A program made the translations under genes and the position numbers. A DNA stretch of 64,000 bases from Eledone cirrhosa (Eukaryota). The number at the start of each line of letters is the position of its first letter. Position 1 is the first letter of the stretch. Below, piece after piece: positions 49,525 through 61,508 of the stretch. Under the pieces are notes generated by a model. It ran no database searches. It was not told where the DNA came from and saw nothing but the letters and a program-made list of their open reading frames with translations. Location of the stretch: the NCBI GenBank assembly GCA_964016885.1, contig OZ024747.1:32488001-32552000 (forward strand), read 5' to 3'.

Positions 49525-49647
49525 CCCAAACGAATCGTTTCATTATAAGATTTCTACATGGTGGGTGAAATTATACCAAGTTATGTAGAAGCTTGTGTAA
49601 GATCAATGCATTATTATGCAAGTCGGCTCTTATAAATCTTCAGTGGG
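49525..49647 (-). ncRNA. Type I hammerhead with enlarged branched stem II
   Basis: CCCA CTGAAGA tTTATAAGA...TCTTATAAt GAAA CGATTCG TT TGGG; homologous to 60161-60282. Confidence 0.72.
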
Positions 49648-49891
49648 TGCCCAATAATATTAATATTAATAACTAAATCAACATCAATGTTTAGCGATAA
49701 TCACCATCAGTGCTAGAAGGAACTGTTAGGTTGTAAGTCCAGCAGTTCTAAAGAAAATCTCACACTGTCCTGAGAATGGGAGTAGGAGGCTACCACTAAA
49801 AATATAATATACACGCAGGTCATTGAACTCTGATATATATACATATATATATATGCATATGTATATATGCATATGTATATATATATATATG

Positions 49892-50564
49892 TAAAATTGA
49901 GATAATTGGAGAAAGTAAAATTCAAACAATTTCTTAAAATAAATTAAAAAATATAATTTAAATATTTACCTAATCCATTTGCTTTTACCGACGGTTTCAC
50001 CTTACAAAATATTGGAGATCCTAGGGATCTCCAATGTAAATGTTCGGATAATCAGAGAGCATTTTCCTTTCCTAGGACAGAAGTCCCAAGAACGGCAAAA
50101 TATATTGCCACCTGCCAGCTAGCACAGGATCTAATGAGGCCGTAAACTTGACCTATGCATGAACCAGCCCTTAGTAGAAGCAGGAAGTAAACATAGACGT
50201 GTTGTCTATCACGCCACGTTTTATTTAGCTGCTATTTTTAGTGGCGTGATAGACAACACGTCTATGTTTACTTCCTGCTTCTACTAAGGGCTGGTTCATG
50301 CATAGGTCAAGTTTACGGCCTCATTCGATCTTGAGCTAGCTGGCAGGTGGCAATATATTTTGCTGTTCTTGGGACTACTCCCATGAAAGGTAAATGCTCT
50401 CTGATGATCCGAACATTTCCATTGGAGATCACTAGGATCTCCAATCTTTTGTAAAGTGAAACCGTCGGTAAAAGCAAATGGATTAGGTAAATATTTAAAT
50501 TATATTTTTAAATTTATTTTAAGAAATTGTTTGAATTTTAGTTGCTCCGCTTATCTCAATTTTA
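49892..50564. repeat. Palindrome with about 325-bp arms (49892-50217 / 50241-50564) and a 23-bp loop; each arm carries an HHR-like motif
   Basis: Direct reverse-complement match; innermost 85 bp perfect. Confidence 0.97.
50395..50476 (+). ncRNA. Hammerhead ribozyme motif in right palindrome arm
   Basis: TGCTCT CTGATGA ...ATTGGAGATC-acta-gGATCTCCAAT... GAAA CCGTCGG TA AAAGCA. Stem I has one mismatch; the left-arm copy has the mutated core CTGATTA. Confidence 0.6.
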
Positions 50565-50939
50565 TAGTTCTGGTATGTGAAATTAATACCATGGAACAAC
50601 CACTGTATCATAGACACCCTATATATTTCCAGGGGTACTTAGTACCTGTGGGGATATTAATCTCTTTTTATGTATATATATATATGTATATATTTATATG
50701 GTTTTATATATATATATATATATATATATATATATATATATATATATATATATATATATATATATATATAGTAATAATAATAAATTTGAAGACTAAAATC
50801 CAAAGAGGGCTCGATAAGGATAAATATATATCAAATATATAAGAACCGTAGAACAAATATTTATTAAAATAATAGATATATATATATAAAATAAACTAAA
50901 ATAAATAAGTCAAATATTTAAAATTTGGCTTCGTTTATT

Positions 50940-50994
50940 ACTGCTATATATATTTCGGTGACAGCCACCTTTGGCTGTGACCTCTTCAGGCAGT
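50940..50994 (-). ncRNA. Type I hammerhead ribozyme in 3' pseudo-LTR
   Basis: ACTGC CTGAAGA GGTcACAGCCA-aagg-TGGCTGTcACC GAAA TATATATA GCAGT. Confidence 0.88.
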
Positions 50995-59915: not shown

Positions 59916-59983
59916 TTAATATATATATATATATATATATATATATATATATATATATATATATATATATATACATATATATA

Positions 59984-60936
59984 TTAATACATTAACAGAG
60001 AAAGCTTTAAGCAATACTCCGACCGGCTTCCGTCTCACTCAACAAACATTAGGATATACCTTAGTATAATCCCAATTATACGTTTGGGGTGCTAACTATA
60101 CGTATTTTGAAGATAGCCAGTTGTATTATTTTATATGAGACATAATTAAATACACCTCTTTCCAAACGATCGTTTCATTATAATTTTTCTACAAATTGGG
60201 AAAATAATGTCCAGGTTATGTAGAAGCCTACACATAGTCCATAGGAATATATGTAGGTGGGCGTTTATAAATCATCAGTGGATGCCCGACAATATCGATA
60301 TAAAAAAAAAACACCTTACCGATATTAATATTCAGCGATGGTACCCGTCAGTGTTAGATTGACCGCCAAATTTGAAATTCCAGCATCTCACAATGAGAAA
60401 TCTCACACCGTCACCAAGCGGGAAGGGGACGTCATCGCAAAACATAAAAGAATAAAATAATATGCACGCAAGTCAATTAATTGTTTCAATAATTTTAACC
60501 ATGCGTGAAGAACTCAATTGGATATAAAAAAAAAAAAATATATGCATGTATTATTTATACACGCATATAGGTATTTTCTTAGGCTAAACACAGAGACAAG
60601 ATACCGGAAAAACAATCAATATTTCATACAAAGAATAAATACAGAAAGTCATACCTAAAAAGTATCTGGAAATATTCATCTCTGGCCAAATCAAGAGTAT
60701 AATATTTAATACATTAACAGAGAAAGCTTTAAGTAATACTCCGACCGGCTTCCGTCTCACTCAACAAACATTAGGATATACCTTAGTATAATCCCAATTA
60801 TACGTTTGGGGTGCTAACTATACGTATTTTGCGGATAGCCAGTTGTATTATTTTATATTATTAAATACATCTCTCTTTCCAAACGATCGTTTCATTATAA
60901 GTGTTCTACAAATTAGGAAAATAATGTCCAGGTTAT
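59984..60936 (-). mobile_element. Retrozyme-like non-coding element, 722-nt unit with about 235-bp terminal redundancy, between (TA)n tracts
   Basis: 59984-60219 is repeated at 60706-60936; HHR at 60161-60282; diverged relative at 46975-47130 plus 49506-49830. Confidence 0.7.
60161..60282 (-). ncRNA. Type I hammerhead with enlarged branched stem II
   Basis: TCCA CTGATGA tTTATAA...[CCTACATA/TGTGTAGG][TTCTACA/TGTAGAA]...TTATAAt GAAA CGATCG TT TGGA. Confidence 0.78.
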
Positions 60937-61368
60937 ATATATATATATATATTTACATATATATATATATATATATACATATATATATATATATATATAT
61001 ATATATATATATATATATACATATATATATATATATATATATATATATATATATATATATATATATATATATATATATATATATATATATATATACATAC
61101 ATATATATATATATATACATACATATATATATATATATACATACATATATATATATATATATATATATATATATATATATATATACATACATATATATAT
61201 ATATATATATATATATATATATATACATATATATATATATATATATATATATATATACATATATATATATATATATATATATACACACACACATACACCA
61301 TATTTATATATATATAAATTAATAAAAATAATGAATAAACAAAGAAACAGTTCCTTATATTAAAAAAT

Positions 61369-61508
61369 TCATCATTTTACGATCGTTTCTAGGATATATA
61401 TGTGTTAGTGTTGGTATCCATATCATATAGATCTATGTAAAATGCTTACAAACTATCAGAAGGAATATACATACCTACACATATATATGCTGTCTTCAGA
61501 AATAATGA
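61369..61508 (-). ncRNA. Type I hammerhead with long stem II
   Basis: TCATTATTT CTGAAGA cagc ATATATATGTGT...ACACATATATAT ccta GAAA CGATCG TA AAATGATGA: 9-bp stem I, 12-bp stem II helix, palindromic stem III. Confidence 0.7.

Follow-up and report, generated by a model that had tools for sequence, protein, structure and literature searches.

Hammerhead ribozymes are already known from the pseudo-LTRs of Penelope-like retroelements and from retrozymes, and the motifs that we describe here resemble both. The Penelope-like hammerheads of Cervera and de la Pena (2014, PMC4209133), in the part of that account drawn on here, are of type I, have a short palindromic stem III suited to dimers and a stem II that goes beyond the canonical one, include a variant in which U3-A8 replaces C3-G8 (reported in Schistosoma), and are found in both pseudo-LTRs as well as in thousands of solo copies, all of which are features shared by the ribozymes below. 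The published helix II, however, comprises 6–8 bp, whereas the stem II found here spans 95–116 nt and is either branched or a rod, and the rod families here have a stem I of 9–11 bp. The animal non-LTR retrozymes (Cervera and de la Pena 2020, PMC7229834; Li, Clavereau and Pollet 2026, 10.64898/2026.07.22.740005), as far as these reports are represented here, share with two of our families, A and B, a tandem array of non-coding units, each of which contains a single type I hammerhead, a low GC content, and co-occurring Penelope elements; moreover, in A and B, as in the axolotl retrozyme Amex2, a U-U mismatch lies at the foot of helix II, and the A/B unit length lies within or just above the 51–972 bp reported for retrozymes. 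A/B units differ in that they exceed the 170–400 nt circles of invertebrates and carry a three-way junction in stem II.

Two further systems are relevant. Neptune and Nematis, the Penelope-like elements with a C-terminal endonuclease treated by Craig et al. (2021, PMC8557442), have in common with our families C and D a reverse transcriptase (RT), a Cys-rich linker, a GIY-YIG domain, partial tandems with inverted 5′-truncated copies, and (TA)n targets. The core-only search in that study, as described in the sections used here, allowed a spacer of 7–17 nt, and long-arm ribozymes would therefore have been invisible to it; the same sections note split cores 35–50 nt apart in Naiads (PMC8557442). 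The discontinuous Clec2 hammerhead of mammals (PMC6155905, PMC6765202; excerpts of both) is likewise a natural hammerhead with a very long insertion in one helix, but it is of type III, its insertion is in helix I, and it resides in a cellular 3′ UTR, in contrast to the type I ribozymes here, in which stem II is long and structured and which belong to mobile elements. A stem II of about 100 nt was not found in the portions covered of published accounts of hammerheads in Penelope-like elements, retrozymes and cephalopods (including PMC10085705 and PMC13725137); the supplements of PMC4209133, PMC8557442 and PMC3088659 may show long variants. What appears to be new is the structural variant in which stem II is approximately 100 nt long, as opposed to the usual 10–20. 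Our reading, for which we put the probability at roughly 0.78, is that the motifs are hammerheads of type I whose stem II spans 95–103 nt, that they are located near the 3′ end of Penelope-like retroelements (the motif at 61369) or of a non-coding tandem repeat (those at 49525 and 60161), and that they likely cut the transposon transcript to unit length, for circularisation and copying into (TA)n sites by Penelope protein.

Long-arm hammerhead motifs in the window

The window is a stretch of 64,000 nt from the genome of Eledone cirrhosa, which comprises 3.0 Gb and is populated by many (TA)n tracts and transposons. The three motifs at 49525, 60161 and 61369 all lie on the minus strand and follow the intact sequence order of a type I hammerhead, namely stem I, CUGANGA, stem II, GAAA, a short stem III, UH, and stem I. 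Hammerhead A (49525..49647; core at 49643-49637, GAAA at 49541-49538) has a 4-bp stem I formed by 49647-49644 with 49528-49525, a branched stem II of 95 nt (49636-49542), and a 3-nt loop on stem III, and it is predicted to be cut after GUU, at 49529/49528. Hammerhead B (60161..60282; core from 60278) resembles A in its 4-bp stem I, in which 60282-60279 pair with 60164-60161, and in its branched stem II of 95 nt; its stem III is palindromic, and the predicted cut follows GUU at 60165/60164. In both, stem II is predicted to consist of an 8-bp basal helix above a U-U mismatch and of two hairpins on a three-way junction. Hairpin 1 (49592..49622 in A, minus strand, 31 nt; 60257-60227 in B) is the variable, covarying arm, and hairpin 2 (49552..49590 in A, minus strand; 60225-60187 in B) is nearly invariant. 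The first-pass annotation had described the 49525 and 60161 motifs as hammerhead-type copies that keep the core, with covariation in stem I (CCCA/TGGG versus TCCA/TGGA), a shared TTATAA/TTATAA base of stem II and a shared TTCTACA/TGTAGAA hairpin, and we found all of these elements as stated. The other internal hairpin does differ in sequence, as had been noted, yet the two versions are homologous, each being 31 nt long and aligning without a gap.

Hammerhead C (61369..61508; core from 61499) is built differently. Its stem I comprises 9 bp (61508-61500 with 61377-61369), its stem II is an unbranched rod of 103 nt, its stem III is palindromic, and the cut is predicted after GUA, at 61378/61377. 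Two additional motifs, unflagged by the first-pass annotation, are present on the minus strand of the window: a 5′-truncated copy of hammerhead B consisting of the 3′ half (60878..60939), one unit upstream of the 60161 copy, and a rod-type hammerhead of another family, D, at 18969-19114, which has the U3-A8 core and is decayed (A6 is changed).

That standard hammerhead models would miss motifs of this kind had been anticipated, and proved correct. Rfam gave no matches for the long-arm motifs at the gathering score, and among the 48 matches obtained between 49300 and 61700 with the threshold relaxed to an E value of 10 there was no hammerhead family; a weak match to the Rfam family HH9 was seen solely for motifs with a 14-nt stem II elsewhere in the window. 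The Rfam hammerhead models miss the long-arm motifs because of the length of stem II.

Carriers of the two arm designs

The motif at 61369 lies within a pseudo-LTR fragment of 457 nt (61314..61770, minus strand) that represents the 3′ end of a Penelope-like element and stops at (TA)n; it is 90% identical to the 3′ end of an ORF-bearing copy at another locus (L159). The decayed family D ribozyme is carried by a pseudo-LTR fragment as well (18788..19479, minus strand), D being a sister family of C, and the relatives of C (families D, G and H) have the unbranched rod stem II in common. Among 30 family C loci retrieved with 1.5 kb of flanking sequence, five (L033, L037, L042, L044 and L045) encode the same GIY-YIG peptide approximately 1 kb upstream on the same strand, and in longer stretches (L158-L160) both RT and GIY-YIG were found upstream of the ribozyme. 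The family D locus L152 contains a complete element, in which a pseudo-LTR with a hammerhead, an ORF, and a second pseudo-LTR with a hammerhead are followed by (TA)n, and 4.1 kb separates its two ribozymes. Both direct repeats of the pseudo-LTR and inverted, truncated copies occur in these families, as seen in L152, L158-L160 and L163. The C/D ORF is single, lies 5′ of the ribozyme on the same strand, and encodes a Penelope-type RT with a C-terminal GIY-YIG domain; a Pfam search with a related ORF of the window gave a weak GIY-YIG match. By sequence, the C/D carriers are Penelope-like elements with a C-terminal endonuclease and a Cys-rich linker, the motif of which we take to match that of Nematis. 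In the sections of Craig et al. used here, the linker motif is compatible with both Neptune and Nematis (PMC8557442).

Families A and B are carried by an element of a different kind. The window copy of A is split, its 5′ piece (49506..49833, itself 5′-truncated) being separated from its 3′ tail (46968..47130, which stops at (TA)n) by a Helitron-like insertion (47131..49505) that contains a PIF1 helicase remnant and runs from TC to CTAG between A and T, an end signature that we assume to be that of Helitrons; all three features are on the minus strand. The family B element (59979..60939, minus strand) comprises 1.3 units of a 717-nt repeat and is flanked by (TA)n at either end. Stem II of A can be aligned to that of B without a gap, and the two form part of a single superfamily, in which at least 12 subfamilies are represented by two or more copies. 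For this superfamily, we found 1294 genome matches when the core was part of the pattern and 3427 when it was not, each against 0 for the control. The unit is non-coding and tandemly arranged, contains one type I hammerhead, and measures 679–767 nt, with further examples of 743 and 989 nt (about 680–990 nt overall); its longest ORF encodes 41–91 aa, and tblastn with 22 Penelope peptides yielded no match to a Penelope remnant in the unit. Of 108 distinct pieces, 92 stop at unit position 280–320, approximately 185 nt past the cut, and (TA)n follows directly in 88 of these 92. The 5′ starts, by contrast with this fixed 3′ end, are scattered along the entire unit, and 26 of 91 copies are longer than one unit. 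A fixed 3′ end together with scattered 5′ ends and multi-unit copies is the pattern expected of reverse transcription from a fixed site on circular or multimeric RNA, which is the route proposed, in the passages available, for retrozymes and Penelope elements (PMC4209133, PMC7229834, 10.64898/2026.07.22.740005).

One alternative is that there is an autonomous Penelope family, unsampled in its full form, of which A/B is the truncated pseudo-LTR. The layout is that of C and D, in that the ribozyme lies close to a 3′ end that is fixed, the targets are (TA)n, and there are inverted partner copies, and the copies inspected amount to about 100 of more than 3,400, among which no autonomous partner was found. 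However, copies that exceed one unit run on into another unit and not into an ORF, the unit lacks an ORF remnant, and among 91 copies no Penelope-derived upstream flank was shared, the flanks that are common being a short interspersed repeat. We consider this alternative improbable. Penelope ORFs adjacent to A/B copies (in L165, L170, L171 and L184, and the window ORF at 52510-55125) were considered as the autonomous parent and set aside; at L171, the locus that was read through, a microsatellite and other repeats lie between the A/B copy and the ORF, and L165 bears a 51-nt ribozyme of its own. Judged by sequence and context, A/B is a retrozyme-type element and belongs with the retrozyme hammerheads, as C/D belongs with those of Penelope pseudo-LTRs. 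The first-pass annotation made no mention of this setting of Penelope-like pseudo-LTRs and non-coding tandem derivatives, which accounts for the long-arm motifs.

The motif at 61369 had been taken for a distant copy of the 49525/60161 family. It does have a long stem II, but the arm is a rod and not branched, and comparison of A/B with family C or D elements gave matches limited to low-complexity stretches, with none over the ribozyme, which rules out a single family for the three window copies. The putative long stem II designs are thus two and unrelated, one branched (A/B) and one rod-like (C/D/G/H), and L149 is probably a third, its arm being probably branched and its relatives decayed. Repeated type I motifs in the fetched loci have stem II lengths of 14, 18, 26–32, 50–57 and 93–116 nt, singletons being possible chance matches. 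From this series across element families, we view the long arms as the end of a range and not as one inserted domain. Hence, of the proposal that these ribozymes represent an undescribed variant with an inserted domain, the first half stands insofar as no long stem II was found in the literature covered, whereas a single family with one such domain does not agree with two designs and a spacer series.

Selection on the core and pairing of the arm

Several observations bear on whether the core is under selection. Among 30 A/B copies that were collected without reference to the core and counted by eye, 26 have an intact 5′ core in which N7 alone varies, three are truncated, and one is mutated. 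Across all 10 subfamily consensuses, a collection partly biased toward the core, 11 positions of the core do not change, while N7 and H17 vary. In 63 of the 91 A/B copies, stem III, which across the hammerheads is either 3 bp or palindromic, consists of a perfect 8-nt palindrome, which takes three forms (42, 15 and 6 copies); the stem III of family A itself is an imperfect palindrome with one extra base. The three palindromic forms fit the dimer mechanism set out for these ribozymes in the parts used of PMC4209133 and PMC6765202. In family D, U3-A8 replaces C3-G8 and N7 is still free, and in all seven rod representatives the fourth position is a C-C mismatch and a tip motif is retained, while the intervening helix is replaced.

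The first-pass annotation had named covariation across copies as a check, and the outcome was clear in the rod family and modest in the branched insert. In the former, 15 two-sided changes were counted in stems I and II, of which 14 preserve pairing, as compared with 6.8 expected (p ~2e-5), for seven hand-picked representatives aligned without gaps from the core and with statistics that ignore the tree. In A/B, no single pair is significant (43 pairs, best E 0.26; 100 alignments simulated on a 110-copy tree). Ten subfamily consensuses gave 9 double changes versus 3.6 expected (p 0.012), with 6 versus 2.4 in the insert (p 0.03); an enlarged set of 12, restricted to stem II and with singletons dropped, gave 6 versus 3.6 (p 0.15). 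In this enlarged set, the share of changes that keep pairing is high in the insert (p 0.002), in hairpin 1 (p 0.0003) and in the basal helix (p 0.001), whereas hairpin 2, which barely varies, has no covariation support (p 0.43). True partners pair in 93% of cells versus 33–53% for slid partners. The A/B structure was drawn from A and B beforehand, which favours these tests, and the branched insert is supported only in part.

In all 13 subfamily consensuses, the excised stem II closes on itself and folds better than shuffled sequences (z -3.5 to -6.5). The folding model predicts that the long stem II, by pairing internally, leaves the catalytic core intact. In the complete motif, the hammerhead fold lies 2.6–5.7 kcal/mol above the predicted minimum in A/B and 1.2–2.1 kcal/mol above it in the rod families; for window copy A, folding without constraints gave a structure other than the hammerhead (z -0.84). 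The A/B unit as a whole is 63% paired, with z scores of -3.7 and -6.6 (12 shuffles), but the antisense scores are low as well.

These results can be set against the view that the motifs are vestiges, that is, that the core is carried along in repeats which spread without cleavage and that the pairing is due to the general tendency of RNA to fold or to recent amplification. Single genomic copies are indeed decaying, covariation in A/B is modest, the antisense units also beat their shuffles (z -2.8 and -5.6, 12 shuffles), and, in the part considered of PMC11167929, cleavage was dispensable in vitro for one Penelope element, with no reads ending at its cut site. Nevertheless, N7, H17, stem I and stem III vary in permitted ways around a core that is retained, and the exchange of C3-G8 for U3-A8 and the replacement of a whole rod helix require selection on the hammerhead fold. 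We regard vestigial motifs as improbable.

A different question is whether the arm does anything. One hypothesis is that the long stem II is a functional domain, serving as a platform to which the Penelope RT-endonuclease or a protein of the host would bind, or as a switch; in A/B, a conserved GGGC strand before stem I (49649..49653 in copy A, minus strand) could pair with a conserved GCCC at the junction of stem II, and this helix would either bring stem I against stem II as a pseudoknot or keep the core inactive as long as no protein is bound. In line with this hypothesis, stem II measures 94–97 nt in 91 of 91 parsed A/B copies (a range bounded by the parser) while the unit ranges from 679 to 989 nt, hairpin 2 is nearly invariant, and the C-C mismatch (7/7) and tip motif of the rod are retained. 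The GGGC/GCCC helix occurs in the minimum-energy fold of three of six A/B consensuses, and partial accounts report that the Anolis hammerhead cleaves only with its protein (PMC11167929) and that pseudoknots speed up hammerheads (PMC3088659). On the other hand, the 3′ tail of the A/B element is as conserved as the ribozyme region (64% versus 51% invariant columns), so that the invariance of the arm is not special. The GGGC/GCCC pairs are conserved and show no compensatory change, with one mismatch in the GCCC partner of copy A; a 4-bp stem I facing an 8-bp basal stem II would make the docking geometry doubtful; and related families have spread with spacers of 14–57 nt. The GGGC/GCCC pairing could be a candidate pseudoknot or a rival helix, and we hold a functional domain to be rather unlikely. 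Most likely, the long arm is a tolerated self-closing extension that is kept paired through selection on master copies, and not a separate catalytic domain. A stronger version, in which two or more independent expansions in this lineage turned the stem II of Penelope hammerheads into a 100-nt structured domain that is recognised by the element's protein or gates cleavage, seems to us unlikely; if true, there would be tens of thousands of long-armed ribozymes invisible to current models, and Penelope clades reported without hammerheads might be accounted for.

Proposed copying cycle and genome-wide occurrence

Under our preferred reading, that of hammerheads cutting the transposon transcript to unit length, the cycle can be outlined by analogy with published Penelope elements and retrozymes. 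Transcription would run through tandem copies, after which one palindromic stem III strand would pair with another, the hammerheads probably acting as dimers, and cleavage after GUU, GUA or GUC would release unit-length transposon RNA, which would be ligated to a circle. Target-primed reverse transcription would start at the fixed site approximately 185 nt past the cut, proceed round the circle, and stop at random, with the Penelope protein for A/B presumably supplied in trans. Three reports, each as represented by the parts used here, count against this outline: poor cleavage was described for Penelope hammerheads (PMC4209133), of nine frog retrozyme dimers, eight failed to cleave in vitro (10.64898/2026.07.22.740005), and the Penelope element of Anolis was inserted in vitro without need of cleavage (PMC11167929).

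The class that standard searches miss is large. This single genome contains at least 6,078 matches to a pattern of two core segments separated by 80 to 110 nt (3 for the reversed control) and 1,337 to the family D core (versus 26), all of these being long-arm patterns, and 9,155 matches in the medium-arm class with a spacer of 45–75 nt (versus 0). A stem I of at least 4 bp closes in 34 of 36 own-genome matches examined. For a nearly identical pattern applied elsewhere, stem I closes in 1 of 121 metagenome matches, among the matches listed, and in 3 of 82 viral matches; these metagenome (at least 121) and viral (about 82) stretches behave as chance matches and were rejected as real hammerheads. 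Hammerhead counts and absences in Penelope clades may thus need to be revisited with relaxed descriptors.

The type I hammerhead core can evidently stay under selection with a stem II of 100 nt, even a branched one, and the natural series of 14–116 nt constitutes a panel for testing the role of stem II in Penelope transposition. The repeat was also present in two contig sets from one sample, which carry no information on expression. Homologs of the Penelope-linked protein number 160, and Argonauta hians is represented among the best 120 of these 160.

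A probable third long-armed design and insertions in A copies

Besides the branched (A/B) and rod (C/D/G/H) forms of stem II, a probable third long-armed hammerhead design was found elsewhere in the genome (L149, G000:C1:54918032-54918152), in which the stem II of 102 nt is predicted to form three hairpins. Its relatives are decayed and share approximately 80% identity.

Copy A, the predicted type I hammerhead at 49525-49647 of the minus strand, adjoins a Helitron-like element (47131-49505, minus strand) that carries a PIF1 helicase remnant and whose insertion point lies about 20 nt beyond the predicted cut site. 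Other A copies in the genome (L008, L018, L020 and L024) are split at about the same spot by a short interspersed repeat. These results suggest an insertion hot spot.

Hammerhead classes with shorter stem II

Two tandem short-armed type I motifs, with a stem II of 14 nt and a palindromic stem III, are located at 20036-20066 and 20622-20652 of the minus strand, upstream of a GIY-YIG ORF (21180-21857, plus strand). They match Rfam HH9 weakly, and a partial, inverted copy lies near 20840. A class with an 18-nt stem II was found elsewhere in the same kind of repeat.

Repeats of the Penelope type carry a further class at their 3' end, with a stem II of 26-32 nt and a palindromic, AT-only stem III (23113-23304 and 59803-59992, both plus strand). 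The class represented by loci L448-L455 has a stem II of about 50 nt and is very abundant (9155 pattern matches), with tandem periods of about 520-570 nt and visible pairing changes; it is probably a further retrozyme or pseudo-LTR family.

Penelope-like ORFs and other repeats

Broken Penelope-like ORFs encoding RT, a Cys-rich linker and GIY-YIG are located at 52510-55125 (minus strand) and 57405-58647 (plus strand), and are flanked by long inverted and tandem repeats (50884-52256, 55268-57036 and 58355-59548). The fragments at 33921-37755 and 46436-47115 presumably contain LINE-like reverse transcriptase sequence. An inverted repeat of 347 nt with an internal duplication (62482-63486) is possibly a miniature DNA transposon. 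Positions 2-17186 are occupied by a satellite of about 635 copies of a 27-bp unit, with strong GC skew.
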